Virus record (IMG/VR): IMGVR_UViG_3300005435_000020
Coordinates: 36,908 to 100,907 of that record
From: a virus
DNA: 64,000 nucleotides
Reading direction: 5' to 3' (one strand)
Shown: positions 1,207 to 36,092 of the stretch, piece by piece
How positions within the stretch are numbered: position 1 is the stretch's first letter
Layout: each line of letters opens with the position of its first letter
Translations under genes and position numbers: made by a program
Notes under the pieces: model-generated
The model's input: the letters and a program-made list of their open reading frames with translations, nothing else
The model's database searches: none
What the model was told of the DNA's origin: nothing

Positions 1207-1572
1207 GTGGCTCAAGGAGTAGGTTTCAGGTTGAATACGTTTCAGGTGGTTGGCAGGCTCGGCGGTGACCCGGAGACGACGACGTTTGCGAGTGGGGACA
1301 CGAAGGTGGCCTTCAATCTCGTGGACAATCGCAAGGTCAAGGGTGTCGAGGAGTCTTCCTGGTTCAAGGTCATCGCCTTCGGCAAGACGGCTGAGATCAT
1401 CGCTTCCCATCTCCACAAGGGGAGCCAGGTCTTCGTCGCGGGGAGGATGCAGCAGCGCAAATACACAACCTCCCAAGGCGAAGAGAAGAAGGTCTACGAG
1501 GTTGTTGCTTCGCAGGTGGAGTTTATCGGACCTCGCGTGAGCAATAACGATGGAGACGAATTGCCGGAGTAG
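1207..1572 (+). CDS. ssb: Single-stranded DNA-binding protein
   Basis: N..VVGRLGGDPE, WFKVIAFGKTAE, KGSQVFVAGRMQQRKY, acidic C-terminal tail DGDELPE. Confidence 0.95.
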   Translation: MAQGVGFRLNTFQVVGRLGGDPETTTFASGDTKVAFNLVDNRKVKGVEESSWFKVIAFGKTAEIIASHLHKGSQVFVAGRMQQRKYTTSQGEEKKVYEVVASQVEFIGPRVSNNDGDELPE

Positions 1573-1650
1573 TCTCCGACACACCGCAGGCTCCCGAGAG
1601 CAGAAGGATTACGCCACAGGGGCCTGTGCTGTTTTGGCACAAAGAAAAGA

Positions 1651-1678
1651 AGGAGGACTGTATTTCAGTCCCCTTTTT
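1651..1678 (+). terminator. Intrinsic terminator-like hairpin after ssb
   Basis: ggaggactg-tattt-cagtcccc followed by TTTTT. Confidence 0.55.
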
Positions 1679-1693
1679 ACTAAGGGAGGGGCG

Positions 1694-2242
1694 ATGAGGA
1701 ACCACGGCGTGAGGCTGCTGTTGGTGGCTCTTATCGGAATATGTTGTTTGGCCCTGCATCCGAATAATGCAGAGGCTGCCCCCTTACAGACGGGGGCCAT
1801 GGAAAACCAACTGAGGAGTGACGTCAACTTCGATAGGGCCAACTACCACGCGGCTCCATTGAAAGAAGACGCCACCCTCGATGCCATAGCCCACGCGAGG
1901 GCCTGGTACATCCTGACGCACCATAGCGTCACGCATTGCAGCACAGACACCCTACAGGAAGGGTGCCATCTCCAGGTGTTGGACCAGTTTTCCTGGCGCA
2001 ACATCCCGATGGATGGGAAGTGGGCAGGTGAGAACCTGGGAGCCGCAGACTATCCTGCATCCGACGTGAGTGACATGAATGGTTATTTCATGGCATCTCC
2101 TCCCCATGAGGAGAACATACTCAATAGCCACTTCACGAAGCTGGGTGTCGGTATCCTCTGCTGCTTCGAGGGCCACATCGGCTCCACGCAGATAGGACCC
2201 AATCAGCCGTTTCCCGTCTACGTCGAAGTGTTCTCAAGTTGA
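1694..2242 (+). CDS. Secreted CAP (SCP/PR-1) domain protein
   Basis: SD gggagg before ATG 1694; signal peptide ending AEA; N..R....PL..D..L..IA..RA, GENLG, MASPPHEENILNSHFTKLGVGI. Confidence 0.85.
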   Translation: MRNHGVRLLLVALIGICCLALHPNNAEAAPLQTGAMENQLRSDVNFDRANYHAAPLKEDATLDAIAHARAWYILTHHSVTHCSTDTLQEGCHLQVLDQFSWRNIPMDGKWAGENLGAADYPASDVSDMNGYFMASPPHEENILNSHFTKLGVGILCCFEGHIGSTQIGPNQPFPVYVEVFSS

Positions 2243-2616
2243 AGCGCCTCCTCGCCATCTTCGGGTTTGTCTTCAGTCTGGCGTTTCCACTCAAAAGCTA
2301 CGCAGGCTCCGGTGATTGCACCGCCTGGGCCTACGAGATGAGGCCAGACCTCTATGGGAGTGTCTGGGGCAATGCCGGTGGCTGGGCCATAGACGCTAGG
2401 ATGTCTGGCAGGAGTGTCGGCTTCCTACCCAAGGTGGGGGCCATCGCCGTCTGGAGACCATGGACTGGGGGAGCTTGGGGACAAGGACACGTCGCATATG
2501 TGACGAGTGTCGGAGCCTACGGCTTCACTGTCACCGAAATGCATTACCCAGTTTACGGCAGAGTAACATCTCGGTGGGTGCCGAGATATTCAGGAGCTAT
2601 GTTCATCTACAAATGA
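2239..2616 (+). CDS. Secreted CHAP-domain peptidoglycan hydrolase
   Basis: Signal peptide ending SYA; GDCTAWAY (Cys), WGNAGGW, PKVGAIAVW, GHVAYV (His), VTEM. Confidence 0.88.
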   Translation: MKRLLAIFGFVFSLAFPLKSYAGSGDCTAWAYEMRPDLYGSVWGNAGGWAIDARMSGRSVGFLPKVGAIAVWRPWTGGAWGQGHVAYVTSVGAYGFTVTEMHYPVYGRVTSRWVPRYSGAMFIYK

Positions 2617-3116
2617 CTGATTACAAGAAGGCTGTTTGGGTACCATCACCCAATTTTGACCAGGGGAGGGAAGGCCACACGATAAACTCCCTAGTCCTTC
2701 ACGGTACCGCTGGCGGTGGGACTGTCCCTTGGTTCTCCCTCCCGCAAAGTTATGTGTCGGCCCACTATGTGGTGGATAAAGACGGCACCGTGACGCAGAT
2801 GGTATTGGAAGCCGACACAGCTTGGCATGCCGGAGAGGTTCCCTACAATAGCCCCTTCTATGGGCAGCCGAATCCCAATTCATGGACCATCGGCATAGAG
2901 TTTGTCAGGGATATCAATAACGCTGAGCCGCTGCCGCAAGTGCAGGTAGACGCTGGCGCTGATCTTGTGAGGGACATCTTTGCGAGGCGAGGCAGGCTCA
3001 TTGTCTTGACCCATGACGAAATTGAGCCAGGCAGAATCTGTCCAGGGCCTGGCTTTCCGGTTGAGACCTTCATGAATATTGACGCCGACACACCAGTACC
3101 GCCGATGGAGAAATAA
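2613..3116 (+). CDS. N-acetylmuramoyl-L-alanine amidase (Amidase_2)
   Basis: ATGA overlap with the CHAP gene; SPNF, LVLHGTA, VSAHYVV, AWHAG, NSWTIGIEF, THDEI..GRICPG. Confidence 0.92.
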   Translation: MTDYKKAVWVPSPNFDQGREGHTINSLVLHGTAGGGTVPWFSLPQSYVSAHYVVDKDGTVTQMVLEADTAWHAGEVPYNSPFYGQPNPNSWTIGIEFVRDINNAEPLPQVQVDAGADLVRDIFARRGRLIVLTHDEIEPGRICPGPGFPVETFMNIDADTPVPPMEK

Positions 3117-3836: not shown

Positions 3837-3947
3837 ATTGAGACGAGTATTATAGTGTTTGAGGAAATAATAAATCTGGTCCGTTTAGATTAGAACCTTC
3901 ACGCCAGCGTCTTGCTGACGTGGTGCCCTACTAGGAAAGGAATCTCA

Positions 3948-4097
3948 TTGTCTCCACTCGCGTGGTTCTTGCTTGTTGTCGCTGGCCTTATCTTGGTCTA
4001 TGTTTTGTATACGGTGCTGCATGTCGCCGTCGCCGTGGCTATCGTAATTGTCCTTTGTGTGATTGGCGTCGCAATCCTTGTGTCGGGAAGATATTAG
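3948..4097 (+). CDS. Small two-TM membrane protein
   Basis: SD aagga plus TTG; two hydrophobic stretches. Confidence 0.65.
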   Translation: MSPLAWFLLVVAGLILVYVLYTVLHVAVAVAIVIVLCVIGVAILVSGRY

Positions 4098-10705: not shown

Positions 10706-12367
10706 ATGGTCATGATCATCGGATTACTCAGGCGCTGGTCCACACCGAATCAGACGGGAAACTTCCGGCAGGAAGCACACTTCGAGGTGATGGAGAAAGT
10801 TGTCGCCGCGAAGGGATGGGAGTTTGCCTACTACGATGAGGGGCAAGTCTCCGGCAGGGACATGAAGAAGAGGCCCAACCTCCAGAGGCTGCTTGATGAC
10901 ATCCGTCACAAGAAGGTGCAGGGCATCGGTGCCCTGGACATCGACAGGATCACCCGCGACGAATACCTCGTGGACCCTGGCATCATCCTCTCCGCCTGCG
11001 CCGACGCTGGTGCCATCATCGTCACGAGGGACAGGGTGTATGACCCTCGGAAGAAAAACGATAGGTTCATCTTCCAGGTCCAGAGTGCCATCGCGGGGAA
11101 TGAAGTCTCCACGATACGCGAGAGGATGTATGAGGGGCTTTCACGCAAGATGATGGAGTCCCCGGTGCATCGAGGCAGGACACCGTGGGGCTATATGCGT
11201 GTGCTGGATGGCGTAGACGCGAAAGGCAATGCCATCAGGCATCTTGAGAAAGACCCTGAGCTTACTCCGGTGGTAATGAGGCTCTTCGAGTTAGCCTCCA
11301 CGTCACTCTCGGTGCAGGGTGTGTCGGCACAACTCAACGGCGAAGGCCTACTGAAACGACGCTGGAAAGACACGGAGGGTGGGCCTCGTTTCTGGACACA
11401 CGCAGACGTGGCGAGTATCGTCTTCAATCCTATTTATTCGGGTAGGCACCACGTCTTGAAGCACCCGACGAAGCCCATCTGGGAAAGCGACGTCATACCC
11501 GAAGGCTTGAGGGACAAGGTTCATTACATAGAAGACTGGGCATTCCTGGACCCTGAGGATCACGATGCCCTGATGAGGCGATTCGAGAAGACGAAGGCAC
11601 ACGGGACACGGGGCAGGCGCAACGACAATGCGCTGCTTGGCATCCTCTCGTGTCTCTACTGCGGCGGCAAGATGTATTTCTCGAAGCGGAAGCCGGGGAG
11701 TAAACTCAACGACTTCCATTTCTGCTTCAACCACATGGCGTGTAAGACTAGCTGCCGTGGGCAGACGATATCGGACCACCTCGTGAAAGCAGCCGTCTTC
11801 GACTTCATCCAGGGAAGGCTCTCGAAGTCCTTGGTGGAGGAGGTAGCCAATGAGCACCAGGACATCTTCGGCTCCGGCGCTGAAGAGGAGCTACGGAGCC
11901 TGCGCCTCCAGTTGGCGACGCTAGAAGAGAAGAGGATGCGCTTCAAGCAGATGGCGAGGGCTGCGACGTCGGAAGCACTGGAGCAGACCTACACGGAAAA
12001 CGCAGCGGAGCTACTTGACGAGATTGCTAGTGTGAGGGAGACCTTGCGACAGAAGGAGACGTTTGCCAAGAATAAGGACAGGATGCTCAGCGTTGTCGAG
12101 AATGTGGTCAGGTTCCGAGACGTCATGGAACACGCGGATAGCGCCACGCAGCATGGGCTCCTCACCCACGTGTTCCGATGGGTGAAGGTGGAAGCCTACG
12201 GTGCGATGCAGCATCGGCAAGTCAGGGTAGCAGCCTGGCACCTGATGGGGGAGGAGGAGCCCCAGACGTCTTATCTCACTGACGACGCCATATCCCCATA
12301 TAACGTCGCCATTTGGATGATGCCACCAGGAGTGTGGCGTGATGTTGTCGGTATGTTCACGGCTTGA
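10706..12367 (+). CDS. Large serine recombinase (phage integrase)
   Basis: Resolvase domain (RWST..Q, DEGQVSG...RPNLQRLL, DRITRD), recombinase domain (PWGY, NPIYSG), Zn ribbon (LLGILSCLYCGGKM), coiled coil; SD ggagg and a -10 TATACT at 10686. Confidence 0.95.
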   Translation: MVMIIGLLRRWSTPNQTGNFRQEAHFEVMEKVVAAKGWEFAYYDEGQVSGRDMKKRPNLQRLLDDIRHKKVQGIGALDIDRITRDEYLVDPGIILSACADAGAIIVTRDRVYDPRKKNDRFIFQVQSAIAGNEVSTIRERMYEGLSRKMMESPVHRGRTPWGYMRVLDGVDAKGNAIRHLEKDPELTPVVMRLFELASTSLSVQGVSAQLNGEGLLKRRWKDTEGGPRFWTHADVASIVFNPIYSGRHHVLKHPTKPIWESDVIPEGLRDKVHYIEDWAFLDPEDHDALMRRFEKTKAHGTRGRRNDNALLGILSCLYCGGKMYFSKRKPGSKLNDFHFCFNHMACKTSCRGQTISDHLVKAAVFDFIQGRLSKSLVEEVANEHQDIFGSGAEEELRSLRLQLATLEEKRMRFKQMARAATSEALEQTYTENAAELLDEIASVRETLRQKETFAKNKDRMLSVVENVVRFRDVMEHADSATQHGLLTHVFRWVKVEAYGAMQHRQVRVAAWHLMGEEEPQTSYLTDDAISPYNVAIWMMPPGVWRDVVGMFTA

Positions 12368-12555
12368 AAGGGAAGCCCACGATGATCTTACTTGCTTTGA
12401 TGATCTTCGCTTTGGTAGTCTTGGTGGTAGGAGTGCCCTCGGCATTCCTCCTAGTACTTTCTATCGCTATCATAAGGATCAGTTTGAAGTTATGGTGGCT
12501 ATGGCTGATCATCGCATTGGTCTGCGTCGCGGCTGCGAATGGAGGTTCCGGTTGA
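12364..12555 (+). CDS. Small membrane protein
   Basis: Hydrophobic 63 aa, TTGA coupling to the integrase. Confidence 0.7.
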   Translation: MKGKPTMILLALMIFALVVLVVGVPSAFLLVLSIAIIRISLKLWWLWLIIALVCVAAANGGSG

Positions 12556-13031
12556 GATACTTGCTTGGTTTCTTGGTTGCATTCCTGCTGGTGGGCTGTG
12601 CGGATTCGGCACAGACGGTTGTATCATCTCCCACGGCAGTAGCCCCTGCGGCTCCTAGTGCCACACCTGGGGCTGCGGCGGCTACTGTCCCTCTCGGAAG
12701 TGACTTGGAGCTTGCCAAAGTCGCCGCCGTTGCCGACATCAAAGGCGACGAGAAAACGGTGCAACAGGTCATGCAGGCCAACCCACAGGCGGTGGCACTA
12801 TTTGTCAAGACGGATAGGCAGAGCTACAACCTCGATATGTACACGGTGGTGGGTGCTGCGGTGGAACAGAAGCCATCGTCCCCCAACCAAGATGGCACTG
12901 TCATGTATTATTTGGATGTCCCCGTGAAGACCCCGCAAGGGACATCACAGCGTTTTAGTATACAAGTCAGGGTCAATCCCGTGGCACACAGAGTGACTTC
13001 CATTGATCCGATGGGCATAGGACTTGACTAG
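12552..13031 (+). CDS. Lipoprotein (candidate superinfection exclusion or lysogenic conversion)
   Basis: SD ggagg plus TTG 12552; MRYLLGFLVAFLLVG-C lipobox; Pro/Ala linker. Confidence 0.75.
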   Translation: MRYLLGFLVAFLLVGCADSAQTVVSSPTAVAPAAPSATPGAAAATVPLGSDLELAKVAAVADIKGDEKTVQQVMQANPQAVALFVKTDRQSYNLDMYTVVGAAVEQKPSSPNQDGTVMYYLDVPVKTPQGTSQRFSIQVRVNPVAHRVTSIDPMGIGLD

Positions 13032-13036
13032 ACAAC

Positions 13037-13078
13037 AAAAATAAGCCCCCTACCCGATGAAGGTAGGGGGCTTATTTT
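13037..13078. terminator. Bidirectional terminator where the two arms converge
   Basis: aaaaataagccccctacc-N7-ggtagggggcttatttt. Confidence 0.93.
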
Positions 13079-13658
13079 ATTGCTTCAGGAATGACGTGAT
13101 GGGGATTTGCGGGGGAGGCTCCGGCGAGGGGATAGTCACCGTCGTCGTCGTGTTGGCGGGGAATGTCGGCGCTGCCGCATTGAGTGGGGGATTGGAAAGC
13201 GAGGGGTCCACCTTTGGTGTGTAGGATTCCGGCACCTTCATGGACACCGTGACGGGGATATCGACAAGCTTCATGGCGACGTCTACAGACTGCACCAAGT
13301 CTCCAGGCTTCGTCGGTGCCTCCACAGTGGCTGCGGTGCCACTTGTCTTGTCCACCGTCTGCTTCCCAAGGAAGGCTGGGATCACTTGCGTGGCACCGTG
13401 GTAGCCGAGTACTGCGCCGCCTCCAATCAAGAGGCCACCATTGTAGAGGAGCAGGAGGATGGCCTGGCTGGACTCCGGCATCCCCGAGAACATTCCCCAC
13501 GCGACGATACCGAGGGCTATGCTCACAAGGCGGATCACGGAGTCGTGGATGCTATTGTCTGGTGTGATCTTTAGCTCAATGAAGTTCTTGATGATCTGTG
13601 TGGCGATGGCAACCATCACCGCCAGGATGAATGGCGTGAGGGCATCAGCGATGGGCAT
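13077..13658 (-). CDS. Holin-like membrane protein with Pro/Thr-rich C-terminal tail
   Basis: Three TM segments, ATQIIKN motif, last gene of the late arm. Confidence 0.65.
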   Translation of the reverse strand: MPIADALTPFILAVMVAIATQIIKNFIELKITPDNSIHDSVIRLVSIALGIVAWGMFSGMPESSQAILLLLYNGGLLIGGGAVLGYHGATQVIPAFLGKQTVDKTSGTAATVEAPTKPGDLVQSVDVAMKLVDIPVTVSMKVPESYTPKVDPSLSNPPLNAAAPTFPANTTTTVTIPSPEPPPQIPITSFLKQ

Positions 13659-14118
13659 GGTAGACTGTCTCTCCTTGACTTTGTAAGACGATGACTGCCG
13701 GGGCTTCTACCCCAGGCTTGAGAAATCTCTGAATCAACCATAGTGGGGCCGGGAGATGGTGTATACCCCCTATGCCAGTATGGTGAAATTTACAAAGCGG
13801 CATCAAATTTTCTTCACTTTCACACCACATGAAGAAGGCTTCTTCGTCGGGTATGTGGAATTGGGGATACAACTCAGCAAACCTACGCCAGTCTGCGTCG
13901 CCTATCAGCGCATACTCCACGAAGTAGTGATGAAGCTCAATGGACTCCTTTGAGCAATCCTTGTTGTCGATGTAGCATTTGAGCTTTCCTTCACGACGCA
14001 TCCTCTCTCGCGTCTCATTGAAGATGTGGTAGTAGGGATCACCCTCTCTTGGAATGTGTGGAGGGTAATGCTCAAGGATTTCGATGTGCTCATGCTCAAT
14101 ATGCTCTTGCTCTGACAT
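13645..14118 (-). CDS. HNH-like (His-Me finger) protein
   Basis: C....DC...IELHH...NLMPLCKFHH....GIH. Confidence 0.65.
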   Translation of the reverse strand: MSEQEHIEHEHIEILEHYPPHIPREGDPYYHIFNETRERMRREGKLKCYIDNKDCSKESIELHHYFVEYALIGDADWRRFAELYPQFHIPDEEAFFMWCESEENLMPLCKFHHTGIGGIHHLPAPLWLIQRFLKPGVEAPAVIVLQSQGETVYHAHR

Positions 14119-14131
14119 GGGAGTGACCAAT

Positions 14132-14156
14132 AAAAAAGGACACCCGAAGGTGTCCT
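14132..14156 (-). terminator. Intrinsic terminator after the repressor
   Basis: Minus strand aggacacc-TTCG-ggtgtcct followed by a T-run. Confidence 0.88.
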
Positions 14157-14175
14157 GTGGTGTGAAGGAAAAGGG

Positions 14176-14886
14176 TTAGCTCCTGTGGAGCATCTCGGCT
14201 AAGGCTGCGACGGTTTCCTTCTCGGTGCCGAAGCTTCGGTACATGCTCTCCACGTAGAAAAGTGGCGTCATTATCGTGGTCTTCCCGAAATGGGAGATGA
14301 CGCCTTGGCCCCTCTTCGCAACTAGCGCCAGGCCCCTACCTTCTTTGATCACGACGGGGATGCCATCGGCAAGCTCCTGGTTCTCGTAGGGCAGGCAGCA
14401 GAGGACATCGCCTTGCGAAAACTGGAAGGGGAAGGGGCCTTCCTCCAGTACAGCAATACCGCGTTTCTCACTCGACACACCGAAGGTGGGGTAGGGCACC
14501 CTCGTTGCTTGGGAAACCCTCGCCACTTCGCCACTCTTGAGCAACTCGTAGCTGATGATCAGCGTATTATTATGCGCTGCGACTAGCGACTCCTGCACAC
14601 CTTGTTGGAGTGCTTCGAGGAGAGGGATGATGGGCTCACGAAAGGGGATCACGTCTCTCGTGGGGAGTGGCGGCGGCTCATCTCCGTGGAGGAGATAGGT
14701 GGTGGATACCTCCAACACTTTCGCTATTTTCTCCAGCGTCTCCGTCGTCGGCTGCGTCTTCCCACTGAGCATCAGGGAGAGTGTCGATGCCCTGATGCCG
14801 GAGGCCAGCGCAAGTTTATTGTCAAGTGTCCAGCCACGCTTCAGCATGGTCTGCTTCAGCCTCTCGGGAAACTCCACCACACACAA
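14176..14886 (-). CDS. XRE-family (CI-like) repressor with degenerate S24-like C-terminal domain
   Basis: RLKQTMLKRGWT...LALASGIRASTLSLMLSGKTQPTTETLEKIAKVLEVSTTYLL; C-terminal QGDVLCC...DGIPVVI...LVAKR. Confidence 0.88.
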   Translation of the reverse strand: MCVVEFPERLKQTMLKRGWTLDNKLALASGIRASTLSLMLSGKTQPTTETLEKIAKVLEVSTTYLLHGDEPPPLPTRDVIPFREPIIPLLEALQQGVQESLVAAHNNTLIISYELLKSGEVARVSQATRVPYPTFGVSSEKRGIAVLEEGPFPFQFSQGDVLCCLPYENQELADGIPVVIKEGRGLALVAKRGQGVISHFGKTTIMTPLFYVESMYRSFGTEKETVAALAEMLHRS

Positions 14887-14915
14887 TCCTCTTCAACACA
14901 CCAAAACACTGCTAC

Positions 14916-14944
14916 AGTATATCAGGCGGGTGGTAGTTTCACAA
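14916..14944 (-). promoter_or_regulatory. Repressor promoter TTGTGA-N17-TATACT (extended TG)
   Basis: Minus-strand boxes at 14944-14939 and 14921-14916, overlapping the end of the response regulator gene. Confidence 0.7.
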
Positions 14945-15356
14945 CGGAAAGCCAGAAGTTTGAAATGGCCGATACCACCGCCATGAATTGCTCAAGGTCA
15001 AATGGCTTCGTCACGTAGCAGTTTGCGTGGAGGTTATAGCTCTGCAATACATCCTTGTCCTCCTGCGACGTCGTGAGCACCACCACGGGAATACGCATCA
15101 GGCACTCGTCTTGTTTGATGTCTTGCAGGAGTTCCCTGCCGTCTTTGCGTGGCATGTTGAGGTCAAGGAGGATCAAGTCTGGCCGAGGGGAGTCCTGGTA
15201 GGGTGCTTCGCGTTTCAGGAACCTGAGTGCCTCCACGCCATCGGTGCAGACGTTGATGTGGTTGATGACCTTGGAGTCCCTCAGCAATTCCTGCGTGAGA
15301 TCAACGTCTGCCTCGCTGTCGTCTACGATGAGTATTTCAATGGGTACTGCCACCAC
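14922..15356 (-). CDS. Single-domain response regulator, Rcp1/phytochrome-RR type
   Basis: ILIVDD, PDLILLDLNMP (phospho-Asp), VVVLTTS, ANCYVTKP, C-terminal NFWLSVVKLP typical of Rcp1. Confidence 0.95.
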   Translation of the reverse strand: MVAVPIEILIVDDSEADVDLTQELLRDSKVINHINVCTDGVEALRFLKREAPYQDSPRPDLILLDLNMPRKDGRELLQDIKQDECLMRIPVVVLTTSQEDKDVLQSYNLHANCYVTKPFDLEQFMAVVSAISNFWLSVVKLPPA

Positions 15357-15363
15357 CTTGCCG

Positions 15364-17196
15364 CTACTTGGAGTATTTCGGGAGGGTGAAGGAGAAGACT
15401 GAACCTTTGTCGGGGACGGAGGTTGCCCAGATGGTGCCACCATGTTGTTCTATGACTTTCTTGCAGATGGAAAGACCTATGCCGGTGCCTTCGTATTCCT
15501 CCTTGCGATGGAGTTTCTGGAATACGACGAATATCTTGTCAGAGTATTGCATATCGAAGCCAATACCGTTATCCGATATATCAATTCGCCACATTGAATG
15601 TTCATCAGTACAGCGTATCAGGATATTCGGGGGGACACCAGGCTTCCGAAACTTTATCGAGTTGGCGAGGAGGTTCTGGAAGACTTGGGTCAGCCAGATG
15701 GGATCACCCGAGACGGAGGGAAGCTGGTCCCTCTCTATCTCCGCGTGGCTCTCGTTGATGGCTGCTTGTAGGCTGTCTAGTGCCGAATCCACACAGGCAT
15801 TGAGATTGGTCTGCACCATCTCCTTCGTCTTCGACGTGACCCTCGAATAGAGGAGCAAGTCTTGGATGAGGTTCCGCATCCTCTGGGAACCGGACACTGC
15901 GTAGCCTATGTACTTCTTCGCCTTGTCGTCAAGCTGCGCCGTATACTGTTTGTCGAGGAGTTGGAGATATGACGTCACCATACGCAGGGGCTCTTGCAAG
16001 TCGTGGGAGGCGATGTAGGTGAACCTCTCCATCTCGCCGTTGCTCTTGATCAGCGCCTCCTCGTATCGCTTCCTCTCCGATACATCGCGTATGGTTGCCG
16101 TGTACATCTTGCCGTCACTCTCGGATGCCCACACGGAGATGAGAAGCTCCAGTGGGAACCTGCTGCCATCTTTCTTGACACCCTGCAACTCCATGGTGGT
16201 GCCGATGACGTGTGAGGGCCACCCCTCCGCGAGGCGTCGGATGCCGTGTTCATGCTTCGGATAGAGGTCAGGGGGGATGATCTTCTCTAGCGTGTGGCCC
16301 ACCATCTCCTCCGACGTGTAGCCAAAGATGTTCTCGGCGGCGTGGTTCCAGAAGGTCACGATGCCATCCGGTGTGATGGACACGAAGGCGTCGGTGGAGG
16401 ATTGCGTCACATTCCAGTACCACTCCTTGACCTTCTCCACTTCCTTGCGCTGCTGAAGTGTCTGCGCCTCTGCCTTCCTCGTGGCATCCATGAAGAATCG
16501 CATCCCAAGGAAATTGCCTATCACCAGGAGCACACCGAAGATGCTTCCATAGAAGGTGATGCGGAGGCTATTGCGTGTGCCCTCTAGCACCGCGTCGTAT
16601 TTCTGCTGGATGGCCTTGGACTGCCTGTCGAGGATGTTGCCCAGGAGGGTGCTGGCATCGACGCCTTGATAGAGACCTTCATCTGTCATGACGAGGGCAA
16701 CGGCTTCATCGTGGGAACCTGATTGCTCAAGCTCAATGGTCCTGAGCATCTCTGATCTCTTCTGGGTGATGAGCCTCTTCGCCTCCGAGAAGTCCCTCGC
16801 ATCGTCGGTGCTGTCTTGTGTGGTGGCCTGCGTCGCGTCTATGGCAGTGTTGATGACCTTATTCGCGTCATTGTAGGACATGAGATAGAGGGGGTCCCCG
16901 GTGAGCAGGTAGCCACGCTGCCCACTCTCCATCTGCTTCAGGTCCAACAGTGTTTGGTAGACGTTGTAGTATTCTAGCCTGGCGCTGCGATAATCTTGCA
17001 GGACATAATAGACCCTGGCGACGATGACGACGGAGTAGATATACGCCGCCACGAGGATGGCGAGTGTGCCCAGGGAACAGAAGGTCAAGAAACGCTGGGA
17101 GGTCATGAGATGAAATGGAGCAGGATGCCACACAATGTTATGATGCCGCCACATACCAGGGACCAGTTTCCGAAGAGGTGAAATCTTTGGAGCCAC
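15364..17196 (-). CDS. Sensor histidine kinase TM-CHASE3-TM-PAS-HisKA-HATPase (Cph1/BphP-type transmitter)
   Basis: ESGQRGYLLTGD (CHASE3); WNHAAENIFGY..EEMVG (PAS); ASHDLQEPLR (H box); QNLLANSIKF, DNGIG, FQKLH, GTGIGLSICK. Confidence 0.96.
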   Translation of the reverse strand: MAPKISPLRKLVPGMWRHHNIVWHPAPFHLMTSQRFLTFCSLGTLAILVAAYIYSVVIVARVYYVLQDYRSARLEYYNVYQTLLDLKQMESGQRGYLLTGDPLYLMSYNDANKVINTAIDATQATTQDSTDDARDFSEAKRLITQKRSEMLRTIELEQSGSHDEAVALVMTDEGLYQGVDASTLLGNILDRQSKAIQQKYDAVLEGTRNSLRITFYGSIFGVLLVIGNFLGMRFFMDATRKAEAQTLQQRKEVEKVKEWYWNVTQSSTDAFVSITPDGIVTFWNHAAENIFGYTSEEMVGHTLEKIIPPDLYPKHEHGIRRLAEGWPSHVIGTTMELQGVKKDGSRFPLELLISVWASESDGKMYTATIRDVSERKRYEEALIKSNGEMERFTYIASHDLQEPLRMVTSYLQLLDKQYTAQLDDKAKKYIGYAVSGSQRMRNLIQDLLLYSRVTSKTKEMVQTNLNACVDSALDSLQAAINESHAEIERDQLPSVSGDPIWLTQVFQNLLANSIKFRKPGVPPNILIRCTDEHSMWRIDISDNGIGFDMQYSDKIFVVFQKLHRKEEYEGTGIGLSICKKVIEQHGGTIWATSVPDKGSVFSFTLPKYSK

Positions 17197-17223
17197 AGGA
17201 GCTTTCTTATTTCCTTACGAATT

Positions 17224-18078
17224 TTATGATGGGGTTGTTGTGGTAGTTGTCGTCGTGGTTGTTGTTGCTGGAGATGGTAAGGTGTGAGCACCTTCCTCAC
17301 TACTTCTATCAATGACGGAGGAGATGTCCTGCACAAGCCTGACTAACTGCTGCCTATTGAATGGCACAGGGAACAGGAAAACCTTTTCCGGTAGCTCCTT
17401 GTCCAGGGACAGATAGCTCCTCGATGACGGGTCACCAAACTCTAATGCGAGTATGAATGCGATTTTGTTGTATCCTGGCATCCTCCTGACGGTGTTCACG
17501 AATTCGTAGCTGTCGGATTTGAAGGACAGGACATCCACGATGATCACACCCAGCGTGGAGGAAGTCATCGTGGAGATGAGGTTCAGTGCATCGTTGCGAC
17601 TCTTTGCGACGACGACGGAGAAGCCGTGGTTGATGAGGAGTTCCTGCGTAGCCTCCCGTATCCTCCCTTCGTTGCCGACGACAAGCACCGTGATGCTTGA
17701 GGGGAGGCTCAAATCGCCTTCGTTGCCGATGAGGAAACCAAACGACTTGGCGGAATTCTTGACGGTGAGGATGAACCTCTCCTGCCTGTCCAGAGACGTT
17801 TGCATGTCCCTGATACGCTGGTCTTGCGTGTAGGCAGCGGCTTTCATGGCTGTCATCTGGCCATCCATCTGGTCAAGCTTCGTCTTCTGCGTGGCGGCGT
17901 CTTCCCTGAGTGTCTTCATGTCGTTGGTCAAGGAGTCGTTGAGGGTCTTCATCTGGCCTATGATCTCGGATTTGATGTCCCGGTGGTTGCGTCGCAGCAG
18001 CACATAGGAAGTCACCATGGCCCCGAAGCCGCCGAGGGCAGAGCCTATCTGGACTAAGGGGATGTCAGTGATGAGCAT
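17224..18078 (-). CDS. Single-TM coiled-coil protein fused to an atypical receiver domain
   Basis: N-terminal TM, heptad region, then TVLVVGNE...GFSVVVAKSRNDAL...VIIVDV...IAFIL...FPVPFNRQQLVRLV; poly-Thr tail. Confidence 0.75.
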   Translation of the reverse strand: MLITDIPLVQIGSALGGFGAMVTSYVLLRRNHRDIKSEIIGQMKTLNDSLTNDMKTLREDAATQKTKLDQMDGQMTAMKAAAYTQDQRIRDMQTSLDRQERFILTVKNSAKSFGFLIGNEGDLSLPSSITVLVVGNEGRIREATQELLINHGFSVVVAKSRNDALNLISTMTSSTLGVIIVDVLSFKSDSYEFVNTVRRMPGYNKIAFILALEFGDPSSRSYLSLDKELPEKVFLFPVPFNRQQLVRLVQDISSVIDRSSEEGAHTLPSPATTTTTTTTTTTPS

Positions 18079-18082
18079 TGCG

Positions 18083-19222
18083 TTACTTCAGGTAGAGTTC
18101 CACGGCACCAGCATACCACTGATCACCACGGTTATAACATTCAATAATACGATTAGTGAGCCTGACGCGATACCGTATCTCGCCATTCACAACCTCCTGG
18201 TACTCCCCGGTGAGGCAGGGTCCGGGGTTCTCCATATCCGCCGTGGGGTCGCCAGCGGCAACCAGCGCCAAGTACTTCTCGCGGAGGGGCTTCAGGCCAT
18301 ACTTATACAGTGCCGAATCAGCACTGGGAGGGTATCCATACATTCCATAGTAGGCAATAATAGAATCGGTAGACTGTGGCTGCGTGGGCACTGGGGTATC
18401 TCCTACTGTGACGTAATCGGCTATTGTGTCCAACACAGGATCAGTTAGCCGGAAGCTGTTCCAGTCTGTGTCGTTGCCGACTTGGTAGATGGTGGCACCT
18501 AGCTCCATAGCATCCGTCAGCATCGCGTCACCCAAGGCGATGAGTTGCGACGCATATACTTCGTCGGGGATGCCGTGAGCCCTATAGCCGTTAGTGTTTG
18601 TGTAGGAGGTGTCCCCTTGACTATTGGGGATCACGCCGAAGTCGATGCCAGCCTCCGAGTAGATGCGTGGCTTTGTGCCATAGCGTGGGTCAAGCTGGAC
18701 ATACTTGCGTGGCCTGAGTGCAAGCCAGTCAGACGACGTGAGGACACCGGGGGCACCGTAGGCGTGGTAGCTCCACGCATCTGCCTGCAAGACGCAGGGT
18801 GCCAGGATATCCAACACACGTCGTATGTCGTCGTCGCTGCCAGCGGGGGTGCCGACAGCCAGGGATAAATCGGAGACCTTAAGGCCAGCGCCTTGGAGGC
18901 GCTTCGTCACTTCGAGGTTGAATTTATTGTAGAAGACGGGATCACCGAGGGCTTCATTGTAAAGCTCCCAGTAGTCCACGATGCCTTTGACGGTTTGGCT
19001 CTCCGTCAGGATGGCCTGCGCCATCTCCTCTTCGTTGCCGTCTTGATTGATCATCCTTCGGCAGACGATGATGGCCTGCGGGTTGTCCTTACGTATCTCC
19101 ACCAGCGATTCTTCGTCGCTATTGAGGAATTTCAGGATGCCCCAGGAGCCGTTGCCTTTGTTGATGGCGTTTCTGGCGAGTGGCGAATAGTTATTGGCGT
19201 GTAGGCCAAGCTTCTTCTTCAA
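18083..19222 (-). CDS. Putative endolysin, glycoside hydrolase TIM barrel plus C-terminal binding domain
   Basis: LGLH, YWELYNEA (acid/base), WSYHAYG, IYSEAG (nucleophile); directly follows the tail genes. Confidence 0.7.
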   Translation of the reverse strand: MKKKLGLHANNYSPLARNAINKGNGSWGILKFLNSDEESLVEIRKDNPQAIIVCRRMINQDGNEEEMAQAILTESQTVKGIVDYWELYNEALGDPVFYNKFNLEVTKRLQGAGLKVSDLSLAVGTPAGSDDDIRRVLDILAPCVLQADAWSYHAYGAPGVLTSSDWLALRPRKYVQLDPRYGTKPRIYSEAGIDFGVIPNSQGDTSYTNTNGYRAHGIPDEVYASQLIALGDAMLTDAMELGATIYQVGNDTDWNSFRLTDPVLDTIADYVTVGDTPVPTQPQSTDSIIAYYGMYGYPPSADSALYKYGLKPLREKYLALVAAGDPTADMENPGPCLTGEYQEVVNGEIRYRVRLTNRIIECYNRGDQWYAGAVELYLK

Positions 19223-34029: not shown

Positions 34030-34824
34030 TTAGCCGAATAACTCGGGACGAATAAAATATTCCTTCACACCCACCAACGGCTTGAGGATGGCAGGCAAGT
34101 CGTAGGGTGATGTCGTCTTGTCGAAGAGGGGACCAAACTCGCCGGAGGCAAGGGCCTGCTCCGATTCCGCCGCGAGGTCTTGGTACATCTGCTTGGCGGG
34201 ATAGAGCTTTGCGTGGTTGATCCTCTTTCTGTGGAGGTTCACCGGGAATACATAGCCGACGTGGCAGAGTGGCTTCGGAAACGACGTATTGACCATCGTG
34301 GGTCCTTTTCCTTTCCAGAAGCGCCAGCCGTCGCCGTCGCTGGACCAGCCTGCATTGGTCTTGACGAGCATTTCTGCCTGCGTGAAGCACTGCGTATTAT
34401 ATTCATCCAGCGTCTGGAAGTTATTGGCTAGGTGTAGGTAAGGAATAGAAATAGCACCCATATCGAGAGAACAGTAATGCGGAATCAGCACAGCACTCTC
34501 GGGGTGCCACACTTCGTCTGCGTGGGCACACAAGGCGTAGTCGCCGGTACACAATTCAAGGCCCCTATCCTGCGCAATACCAGACACCCTCCCTTCGCCG
34601 GAGCCATACACCTTGGTAGTGTCGGGCCACCCACCATATTCTATCCTGACCTTCTCGGGATATTTGTGGCGAAGCATCTCCCACCAATATTCGGTGTTAT
34701 CTTGGGAGCCGCATTCCAGCACCACATATTCATCCACGACGTCGATGAGACTCAACGCCGTTTCTATGTAAGGGTACCCGAGAGACAGCAAATTGCGGGA
34801 TATCGTGAAGGCAGATATCTTCAC
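34030..34824 (-). CDS. Glycosyltransferase family 2 (GT-A)
   Basis: KISAFTISRN...VDEYVVLECGSQDNT...CTGDYALCAHADEV; GTGA coupling. Confidence 0.88.
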   Translation of the reverse strand: MKISAFTISRNLLSLGYPYIETALSLIDVVDEYVVLECGSQDNTEYWWEMLRHKYPEKVRIEYGGWPDTTKVYGSGEGRVSGIAQDRGLELCTGDYALCAHADEVWHPESAVLIPHYCSLDMGAISIPYLHLANNFQTLDEYNTQCFTQAEMLVKTNAGWSSDGDGWRFWKGKGPTMVNTSFPKPLCHVGYVFPVNLHRKRINHAKLYPAKQMYQDLAAESEQALASGEFGPLFDKTTSPYDLPAILKPLVGVKEYFIRPELFG

Positions 34825-36092
34825 GAGAGCTTCCTCATGACACCCAACAACTCTTTGACCATCACTTCCCGAGAAAACTTGCGCCTGACGTAGGAAGCGG
34901 CTTTCTTGCCTTTCGCCTTGGCTTCGTCTCGGTTGTCGTAGATGTGGCGCATGAGGTGGCTTACTTGCTCCATGTCGCAGTTCCACCAAAGAAGGGGTTT
35001 ATAGTCTCTCATGCCGAGAGGAGACTCCACCAAGGGCTTGTGCGGGTCCAGCCCCACGGTGTAGCAATATTTGTCGTCTGCCCACGCGGAGCAACCGGAG
35101 TGTGTCGGCGCAATCACCGGCAATCCCGTCGCCATGGCCTGGAGAGGCGGCATGAAAAATCCCTCACCGTGTGAGAGGAAGCAAGCAGCGTCTGCTTCGT
35201 GGGCGAGTTTCGCCAGTTGCCAGGTCTCCCACTCTTCGTCAATGATGGTGACGCGGCTATCCGCCACGGCGGGGATGCCTGCCCTGCCCACGCCGAAATC
35301 GTGGTTGCGTGTCTTCATGATCAATCTGACGTCTGGGTATTTAGAGACGGGAAATGCCTTCCAAAATGCGATAAGCGTTTCGTTGGGGCACTTGCGGCTG
35401 GACATCCGTGACCAGGAGACGAAGGTGAAGGTATCCTTCTCTTCCCTCTCCTTGTAGGCATATTCCGACACGTCAATTCCGATGGGCACCGCATACATGG
35501 GCTGAGTGCACCCGCTGCTCCTGAATATCTCTATCTGCGACTCGGCGGGGACGATGATGATATCAGCCGTCTTCAGTGGCTCATCCCAGGTGCTGGGTAC
35601 TTGCGTGGACTCGTACATCGTGGAGAGGACACGATGCTCTGTGGGAAGCTCATCTAAGGCGTTGGGGTAGCCGAAGGCGATACCCCAGCGTGTCGGGTAC
35701 TTCGGCTCCCTCTCGATAAGCTCCACGATGCCTGGGTACATCTTCGTGAGGGATTCCCGCATACTCGGGTGGACGCCATTCACTGAGGAAATGCGGACCC
35801 CGTGTTGCTCCAGGCCCAGGAGGCTGTGGATGGAATAGGTGCCGTAGCCTTCCGTGGGATGCACCGGGATGGTTGCGGTGAGGTAGAGGGTCTTCCCTTC
35901 TTTGTGCTTGCAGTCTTCCCAGGCGATGGACCAGTGCTTCGTGTCCCTGGCGAGTTTGATGCAGAGGATGGGGTCCACTTTGTTGGTGGACTCACCCGGC
36001 TCCAGCCTGACTTGGGCATCGGAGAGGTACTCGGTCCTGTTGCCGACATTCTTGAGGATGGGCAATGCGTGGCAATCCTTCTCACTGGACAA
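34821..36092 (-). CDS. Glycosyltransferase family 4-like (GT-B)
   Basis: GYG, MYEST, VPIGID, RK, ADAACFLSHGEGFFMPPLQAMATGLPVIA. Confidence 0.92.
   Translation of the reverse strand: MSSEKDCHALPILKNVGNRTEYLSDAQVRLEPGESTNKVDPILCIKLARDTKHWSIAWEDCKHKEGKTLYLTATIPVHPTEGYGTYSIHSLLGLEQHGVRISSVNGVHPSMRESLTKMYPGIVELIEREPKYPTRWGIAFGYPNALDELPTEHRVLSTMYESTQVPSTWDEPLKTADIIIVPAESQIEIFRSSGCTQPMYAVPIGIDVSEYAYKEREEKDTFTFVSWSRMSSRKCPNETLIAFWKAFPVSKYPDVRLIMKTRNHDFGVGRAGIPAVADSRVTIIDEEWETWQLAKLAHEADAACFLSHGEGFFMPPLQAMATGLPVIAPTHSGCSAWADDKYCYTVGLDPHKPLVESPLGMRDYKPLLWWNCDMEQVSHLMRHIYDNRDEAKAKGKKAASYVRRKFSREVMVKELLGVMRKLS

Follow-up and report, generated by a model that had tools for sequence, protein, structure and literature searches.

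An intact histidine kinase-receiver module predicted beside a putative lysin gene in a temperate phage

The contig IMGVR_UViG_3300005435_000020, a linear IMG/VR virus record of 100,907 bp with an estimated completeness of 66%, carries genes for a sensor histidine kinase, an Rcp1-type receiver and an orphan protein of 284 aa, all on the minus strand and downstream of a gene for a putative lysin. The stretch that we analysed, referred to below as the window, comprises bases 36908-100907 of this record (64,000 nucleotides). Judged from the sequence, these genes make up a genuine, intact phage signalling module. Our preferred reading, to which we give a probability of roughly 0.35, is that the module is a late-expressed relay in which the receiver acts on the 284-aa protein, a degenerate receiver protein, and thereby tunes the breach of the cell envelope. 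It is known that phages can listen in on peptides and quorum signals. We know of no experimental study of a complete kinase-to-receiver relay that is owned by a phage and has an outward-facing sensor, and a literature search for phage-borne relays found only the receiver-less agr kinase of phage phiCDHM1. If the module does tune lysis or induction, it would be a new viral way to time the killing of the host by outside conditions.

The Pfam matches of the kinase are all above the cut-offs (CHASE3, 2.2e-24; PAS_9, 6e-13; HisKA, 2.5e-11; and HATPase_c, 7.7e-27). HisKA scores 43.9 bits (cut-off 26.9), HATPase_c 94.4 bits (cut-off 26.4) and CHASE3 86.3 bits (cut-off 28), and the CHASE3 match spans positions 14-134 of the 138 in the profile. 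Transmembrane helices are predicted at aa 42-60 and 213-231 of the 610-aa open reading frame (ORF) and CHASE3 lies between them, which is the arrangement of an extracytoplasmic CHASE3 sensor. The H-box (SHDLQEPLR) has its histidine and the N, G1, F and G2 boxes are present; the motifs read NLLANSIKF, DNGIGF and GTGIGL. The transmitter is closest to the histidine kinase 8F71 (8.8e-50) and to bacteriophytochromes (3e-35 for the kinase cores). Taken together, the matches predict a kinase whose CHASE3 domain is extracytoplasmic, whose PAS domain is cytoplasmic and whose transmitter is complete and of the bacteriophytochrome type. Its start is either GTG 17196, which gives the 610-aa ORF, or ATG 17106, which is the public call (580 aa).

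The receiver matches Response_reg at 3.5e-23 (82.3 bits) in Pfam, and its PDB matches include Rcp1 (1JLK/1I3C, 4e-43), RcpA (1K68, 9e-42) and 5TE9 (4e-48). The catalytic DD, D, T and K are complete, with D13, D65, S/T97 and K117 conserved in the alignment. The protein has a receiver domain only, Rcp1 and RcpA are its closest relatives, and the gene is next to one for a phytochrome-type transmitter. It is a complete Rcp1-type single domain without an output domain. The ORF is open to ATG 15443 (14922-15443), and GTG 15356, which is in frame and about 7 nt past the kinase stop codon, is the likely start. An earlier reading of this DNA from its letters alone (the original prediction) had claimed an intact CHASE3-PAS-HisKA-HATPase kinase and an intact Rcp1-type receiver; both claims are borne out by the domains and by the catalytic motifs, every one of which is kept.

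The 284-aa protein aligns with receiver domains in the PDB over aa 131-252, which is the whole domain, at an E-value of 0.016, and jackhmmer gives 2e-4. In the alignment the phospho-acceptor Asp is kept, the acidic pair DD is changed to GN and the Thr and Lys are lost; the domain thus appears to lack residues needed for phosphotransfer. A word-index search of 5.8 billion proteins, covering lengths of 156-497 aa, found no homologue besides the protein itself. The gene had been predicted to encode a transmembrane segment, a coiled coil and a pseudo-receiver. The coiled coil and a receiver-like match with lost residues stand, although the match is weak by every measure, but the transmembrane segment is only marginal; the protein may be membrane-associated. 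An Rz-like spanin was considered for this protein and rejected: the weak PHROG match is confined to the coiled coil, and the positive charges past the hydrophobic segment put the rest of the protein in the cytoplasm.

The minus-strand order is glycosidase (the putative lysin), 284-aa protein, kinase, receiver, XRE-family regulator, terminator, HNH endonuclease, a holin-like gene with three transmembrane helices and a second terminator (Table 1). The gene content and layout of this cassette, checked with Pfam and PHROG and by reading the junctions, are as originally predicted. There is a gap of 35 nt ahead of the glycosidase gene, which starts with TTG and has GGAGG upstream. Only 4 nt separate the glycosidase stop codon from the start of the 284-aa gene, which has no ribosome-binding site of its own, and this short distance suggests that the 284-aa gene is probably translationally coupled to the late lysin gene. 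The kinase gene starts 27 nt after the 284-aa gene with GTG 17196, or 117 nt after it with the ATG 17106 of the public call, and the gap between the receiver and XRE genes is 35 nt. In a consensus scan, none of the genes for the 284-aa protein, the kinase and the receiver is preceded by a promoter-like site. The scan did find a sigma-70-like candidate that overlaps the receiver stop codon in front of XRE; it is a single match and a lead only.

The module sits at the far end of the late operon. It had been predicted that there is no terminator before 14156, and this holds: minus-strand terminator-like sites in the module are found only at 14156-14137 and 13078-13038. There are also none from the tail genes down to 14156, so that the module is not cut off from the late genes. 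This suggests that the module is read through from the late (tail-lysin) operon. The second site is an inverted repeat that is a bidirectional terminator or possibly attP, and it lies 0.7 kb from the serine integrase.

Table 1. Positions of the module genes, of other features of the window and of comparable three-gene modules on other contigs.
Feature	Position	Strand	Basis or description
Clan GH-A (beta/alpha)8 glycoside hydrolase with C-terminal beta domain, 379 aa (plausible lysin)	18083-19222	-	Fold, catalytic residues, domain fusion
Orphan protein, 284 aa	17224-18078	-	Weak N-terminal hydrophobic segment, coiled coil of ~70 aa, degenerate receiver domain, poly-Thr tail
Sensor histidine kinase	15364-17196	-	Transmembrane helix 1, CHASE3, transmembrane helix 2, PAS, HisKA, HATPase_c; Pfam, transmembrane prediction, PDB
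Single-domain Rcp1-type response regulator, 144 aa	14922-15356	-	Pfam, PDB matches, motifs
Candidate sigma-70-like promoter, TTGTGA-17-TATACT with extended TG	14916-14944	-	Consensus scan, 9/12 positions
XRE-family regulator, 236 aa	14176-14886	-	HTH_3 6.5e-12 (Pfam), PHROG repressor families
Intrinsic terminator, 8-bp GC-rich stem and T run	14137-14156	-	Terminator scan, sequence read
HNH endonuclease	13645-14118	-	phrog_8048 1.7e-11; GC 0.485, GC3 0.54
Holin-like protein, 193 aa (lead only)	13077-13658	-	Three N-terminal transmembrane helices, Pro/Thr-rich tail, strong AAGGAG ribosome-binding site
Perfect 18-bp inverted repeat with 5-nt loop, between convergent operons	13038-13078		Scan, sequence read
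Large serine recombinase (integrase)	10706-12367	+	Resolvase 1.4e-16, Recombinase, Zn_ribbon_recom
Protein of 61 aa with two transmembrane helices, possible holin	3912-4097	+	Transmembrane prediction
Amidase_2, start overlapping the CHAP stop by ATGA	2613-3116	+	Amidase_2 6.5e-24, PHROG amidase family
Secreted CHAP peptidase	2239-2616	+	CHAP 5e-12, PHROG endolysin family, signal peptide
Secreted CAP-domain protein	1550-2242	+	Second lysis-type gene set
Receiver-coiled coil-transmembrane protein, kinase and receiver, three of the five IMG/VR contigs	L014/L046 6907-9393; L015/L050 6729-9169; L019/L048 6772-9333		
The same three-gene module, other two of the five contigs	L047 5995-8376; L049 6028-8514		

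Genes of the window for a major capsid protein of the Gp23 type and for a prohead protease of family S77, together with the IMG/VR record, identify the element as phage DNA. On the minus strand a long late operon reaches down to 13077, and the plus-strand block closes with a large serine recombinase. The presence of this recombinase indicates that the phage is temperate. No tRNA genes were found in the window.

The module itself appears to be long-resident and owned by the phage. In the 5.8 billion proteins, the best homologues of the kinase are 42-45% identical over about 58% of its length and match the PAS-transmitter part only, so there is no near-identical cellular pair from which it could recently have come, and the kinase does not appear to be a recent capture. 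The tetranucleotide profile of the module is ordinary for the contig (37th percentile of its windows). Its GC content at third codon positions (GC3), 0.70-0.74, is that of the capsid, portal and tail genes, and among the genes measured HNH alone deviates. The recent passive capture that would have refuted the original prediction is therefore not borne out. It is very improbable that the module is host DNA that was caught recently and is carried passively, or a chimera of the assembly, without a function for the phage: all the catalytic motifs are intact, the junctions are tight or overlapping, and these proteins are found on two recorded contigs (100,907 and 99,211 bp), in addition to the distance from cellular homologues (45% identity at most) and the phage-like composition. 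In favour of passive capture, only one phage of this kind is known and selection on the genes is consequently unmeasurable.

Similar pairs are present in other viruses. A profile scan of IMG/VR gave 27 loci with such a transmitter, and in at least 17 of them an Rcp1-type receiver is directly downstream. Further receiver domains are carried by 12 of the 144 ORFs neighbouring these loci. The three kinases that were scanned from the 27 loci have PAS, GAF or ETR1_N sensors and not CHASE3, and none of the loci has a neighbour related to the glycosidase, the 284-aa protein, XRE or the 193-aa holin-like protein. Most GenBank phage matches are bacterial contigs filed as phage. The claim that intact kinase and receiver pairs are uncommon in phages therefore holds, although they are not unprecedented, as the IMG/VR loci and a Microcoleus phage show. 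The original prediction had proposed a search of IMG/VR and GenBank for such pairs beside lysis genes; the pairs recur, and at the 27 IMG/VR loci they do so without relatives of the lysin or the holin-like gene nearby.

Five of the IMG/VR contigs (82-372 kb) carry a module with the same order as here, that is, a membrane coiled-coil receiver protein, a kinase and an Rcp1-type receiver (Table 1). In these modules the protein encoded ahead of the kinase consists of an intact receiver, a coiled coil of ~130 aa, a C-terminal transmembrane segment and, as in the 284-aa protein, a Pro/Thr-rich end. Its receiver domain is N-terminal and its transmembrane segment C-terminal, so that the 284-aa protein is a mirror image of it, and similarity between the two is detectable within the receiver domain only. 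The kinases of these modules are short (about 355-386 aa), and L014 and L019 have an extra single-domain receiver downstream. The shared order makes the 284-aa protein a credible true third component and suggests that the output is at the membrane. The presence of this order in several large phages also suggests a wider class. A second family of receiver proteins, of 257-275 aa, is found right after the Rcp1-type receiver in three further loci (L010, 9138-9911; L022, 9151-9978; and L029, 9078-9884), and its members have in common a helical C-terminal domain of ~140 aa without a Pfam match.

Microcoleus phage My-WqHQDG (OR578706) has a transmitter of the same kind (40% identity) and, after it, an Rcp1-type receiver (34%), with a 4-nt overlap of the genes; no CHASE3, degenerate receiver protein or XRE is seen there. 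The Cph1-Rcp1 and bacteriophytochrome pairs share the SHDLQEPLR H-box with the phage kinase, match its transmitter at 3e-35 and its receiver at ~1e-42, and also have the receiver gene directly after the kinase gene. The sensor of a Cph1-type kinase is a bilin-binding PAS-GAF-PHY unit, in contrast with the extracytoplasmic CHASE3 and the PAS of the phage kinase. Unlike Cph1-Rcp1, the module is phage-encoded, and it includes a third protein, a degenerate receiver that may be anchored in the membrane. The temperate Clostridium difficile phage phiCDHM1 carries an agr cassette that includes an agrC kinase beside the endolysin gene and is transcribed during infection (PMC3901668). Its agrD, agrB and agrC are peptide quorum-sensing genes with no phage receiver, they have a low GC content compared with the phage, and they have close host homologues (PMC3901668), whereas here both kinase and receiver are present, the composition is phage-like and the pair is distant from every known cellular pair.

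In the reading that we prefer, an envelope or extracellular cue, together with input to the cytoplasmic PAS domain, would set the autophosphorylation of the kinase. Phosphate would move from the kinase to the Rcp1-type receiver which, having no DNA-binding part, would work by protein contact when phosphorylated. Its likeliest partner would be the degenerate receiver protein of 284 aa and the output would most likely be at the membrane late in infection, where it would time the breach of the envelope. Action late and near the lysis machinery is favoured because there is no intervening terminator and because only 4 nt lie between the lysin stop codon and the start of the 284-aa gene. In T4 RI-T and in LytSR-Cid/Lrg, a signal from outside or at the membrane delays or tunes holin-dependent lysis. 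LytSR is a host two-component system that acts on holin-like and antiholin-like genes through a DNA-binding receiver, and RI-T works by direct periplasmic binding with no phosphorylation. Nothing homologous to RI, T, LytS, LytR, Cid or Lrg was seen, and no RI/T or AimR/AimP/AimX families turned up in the Pfam and PHROG scans of the cassette, although no dedicated search was made for either set. Any resemblance to T4 RI/T or to arbitrium would be one of purpose only. In a phosphorelay lysis clock, the kinase would read the outside or envelope cue late in infection, and the phosphorylated receiver would dock on the degenerate receiver domain of the membrane coiled-coil protein that is made together with the lysin, which in turn would gate holin triggering. 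Such a clock would do by phosphorylation what lysis inhibition does in T4, and the three-gene modules of the large phages would then form a wider class, not described so far, of phage signalling systems with an output at the membrane; we regard it as unlikely.

Several points weigh against a late relay that tunes envelope breach. Only its position links the module to the timing or inhibition of lysis or to the lysis-lysogeny decision, and it occupies the slot between lysin and integrase, which is the usual place of accessory or lysogenic-conversion cargo. The Response_reg match of the 284-aa protein is sub-threshold (E-value 0.003, 18.2 bits compared with a cut-off of 30.2), and its Gly/Ala-rich N-terminal segment is marginal as a transmembrane helix, being under the Kyte-Doolittle threshold of 1.4. 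The 193-aa holin-like protein has no Pfam or PHROG match and no match to a holin hidden Markov model (HMM), and its gene is placed behind the terminator and the HNH gene. The genes for the canonical peptidoglycan hydrolases (CHAP and Amidase_2), the CAP-domain protein and the 61-aa two-helix protein are on the opposite strand, 10-15 kb from the module; the phage thus has its lysis genes in more than one place and not solely in the cassette that holds the signalling genes. The modules of the five IMG/VR contigs have GroEL, clamp-loader and HNH genes as neighbours, none of the 25 commonest PHROG families listed for those neighbours being a lysis family, and the pair of the Microcoleus phage lies among primase, helicase and nuclease genes. 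Finally, close relatives of the phage were not found in the scans, and the arrangement is known from one phage.

The position in the cargo slot raises the question of whether the module mainly serves the lysogen, by altering the physiology or surface of the host or by reporting conditions to the prophage. The serine integrase lies 0.7 kb beyond the cassette with a lipoprotein-like gene after it, XRE is equipped with a promoter-like site and a terminator of its own, no lysis family is listed among the neighbours of the other viral kinase-receiver pairs, and phiCDHM1 offers a precedent: its agr cassette has a histidine kinase gene, adjoins the endolysin gene and is transcribed in infection (PMC3901668). 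Against this, the scan gave no promoter-like site in front of any of the genes for the 284-aa protein, the kinase and the receiver. The start of the 284-aa gene 4 nt past the lysin stop codon, without a ribosome-binding site of its own, suggests coupling to the lysin, and the composition is fully phage-like, unlike that of the low-GC agr cassette of phiCDHM1 (PMC3901668). We therefore consider a role as lysogenic-conversion or accessory cargo to be rather unlikely, if still a serious rival to the late relay.

Two further explanations place the output of the receiver elsewhere. Rcp1-type receivers have no fixed output, and the transmitter type recurs in the 27 IMG/VR loci with varied sensors (PAS, GAF and ETR1_N) and varied neighbourhoods, as would fit a general sensing role during infection in which the phage kinase cross-phosphorylates or drains host receivers, apart from lysis. 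The modules in the early regions of large phages may work in this way too. An early takeover of this kind would not predict a module that closes the late operon and begins 4 nt past the lysin stop codon, and we think general sensing doubtful. It is more improbable that the phosphorylated receiver binds the C-terminal domain of XRE, so that the cue alters repression for induction or for the choice between lysis and lysogeny. The phage is temperate, the XRE gene is 35 nt after the receiver gene, and its product combines a helix-turn-helix (HTH) with a 160-aa unrecognised domain and has no Peptidase_S24 match. Against this, there are two other XRE genes just before the primase/DnaB module, the motif in the XRE promoter region does not recur in the window, XRE has no divergent partner gene, and no homologue of this XRE is found near any of the 27 other viral kinase loci. 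A predicted complex of the receiver with the XRE C-terminal domain scored 0.01, which is evidence neither way.

The 379-aa glycosidase had been predicted to be an endolysin. It has no Pfam or PHROG family at E-values up to 10 and no recognised peptidoglycan-hydrolase domain. A full HMMER scan gave 775 homologues, and in a 50-sequence alignment R55, N89-E90, H153, Y155 and E190 are invariant, which is the clan GH-A signature. An AlphaFold (AF2) model built from this alignment (pLDDT 90; a two-sequence alignment had given pLDDT 42) is a (beta/alpha)8 barrel with a C-terminal beta domain. The nearest solved folds in Foldseek are PslG, GH5 mannanases, GH128 and GH39, and phage GH5-like proteins rank first in a viral structure library. 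An Amidase_2 domain is present in 7 of the 50 homologues and SLT in 1. The relative P0124 (552 aa, from a 3.2-kb Logan contig) is a natural fusion that has the same barrel (43% identity), an inserted Amidase_2 and the same C-terminal domain (46%), and its Amidase_2 is 52% identical to the amidase encoded in the window itself. The fusion ties both enzymes to one process, cell-wall breakdown. Consistent with an endolysin, the glycosidase is associated with wall hydrolases in this way, its gene lies after the tail genes, and neither a transmembrane helix nor a signal peptide is predicted. Because of the P0124 fusion, the fold and the catalytic residues we take the enzyme to be a lysin-type hydrolase; it is plausibly a lysin, as had been predicted, but belongs to no recognised lysin family. 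If so, it would represent a glycosidase family so far unrecognised among endolysins. The P0124 fusion also points to a family of catalytic and wall-binding domains of endolysins that has so far gone unrecognised.

The XRE protein consists of an N-terminal HTH and a C-terminal domain of ~160 aa of no recognised family, and its PDB matches span the HTH only. It had been called a repressor, which agrees with the HTH_3 and PHROG repressor matches, but Peptidase_S24, the self-cleavage domain with a Ser-Lys dyad that marks a CI/LexA-type repressor, is not matched at E-values of 0.01 or below, and the protein does not fit that type. The two other XRE genes (L003, 795-1732; 20.8-21.7 kb on the contig) are arranged tail to tail, encode proteins of 181 aa (plus strand) and 131 aa (minus strand), and lie just upstream of the genes for the primase and a DnaB-like helicase. 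This is the usual site of the immunity switch. No other copy of the motif in the XRE promoter region and no operator set were found in the window. Since two other XRE genes precede the primase/DnaB module and there is no repeated operator, the XRE of the module is unlikely to be the master repressor.

The phrog_8048 match confirmed that an HNH-like gene follows the terminator. Its GC and GC3 are well below those of every other gene measured and it overlaps the start of the 193-aa gene. This suggests that the HNH gene is probably a later insertion that split XRE from the holin-like gene. The 193-aa protein is atypical for a holin in its length and in its Pro/Thr-rich uncharged tail. In the Atlas it matched viral clusters at 0.87-0.88 and Phage_holin_5_2 (score 0.87, and TM score 0.39/0.53 by structure), which are leads only. 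The call of a holin-like gene thus holds for the three transmembrane helices, but the holin family is a lead from the language model and from structure.

In IMG/VR scans with single proteins (the kinase, the glycosidase, an 863-aa tail protein and the putative large terminase), close relatives were not found. Small glycosidase alignments had no match in IMG/VR, nor had the two-sequence alignment in JGI metagenomes. A genome scan gave two distant matches only, both from Anaerolineales, and a search of 401 genomes of the phylum of these matches found distant glycosidase relatives in 14 (best E-value 5e-34). A 148.5-kb contig that carries P0123 is probably from a related phage.

Two other genes of the window were noted. 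The lipoprotein-like gene directly after the integrase (12339-13031, plus strand), in which an LVGC lipobox follows a hydrophobic stretch, is a candidate superinfection-exclusion or conversion gene. A group-1/GT4 glycosyltransferase-like gene (34821-36092, minus strand; Pfam 1e-6, including 'GT4 in conflict systems') adjoins the major capsid gene.

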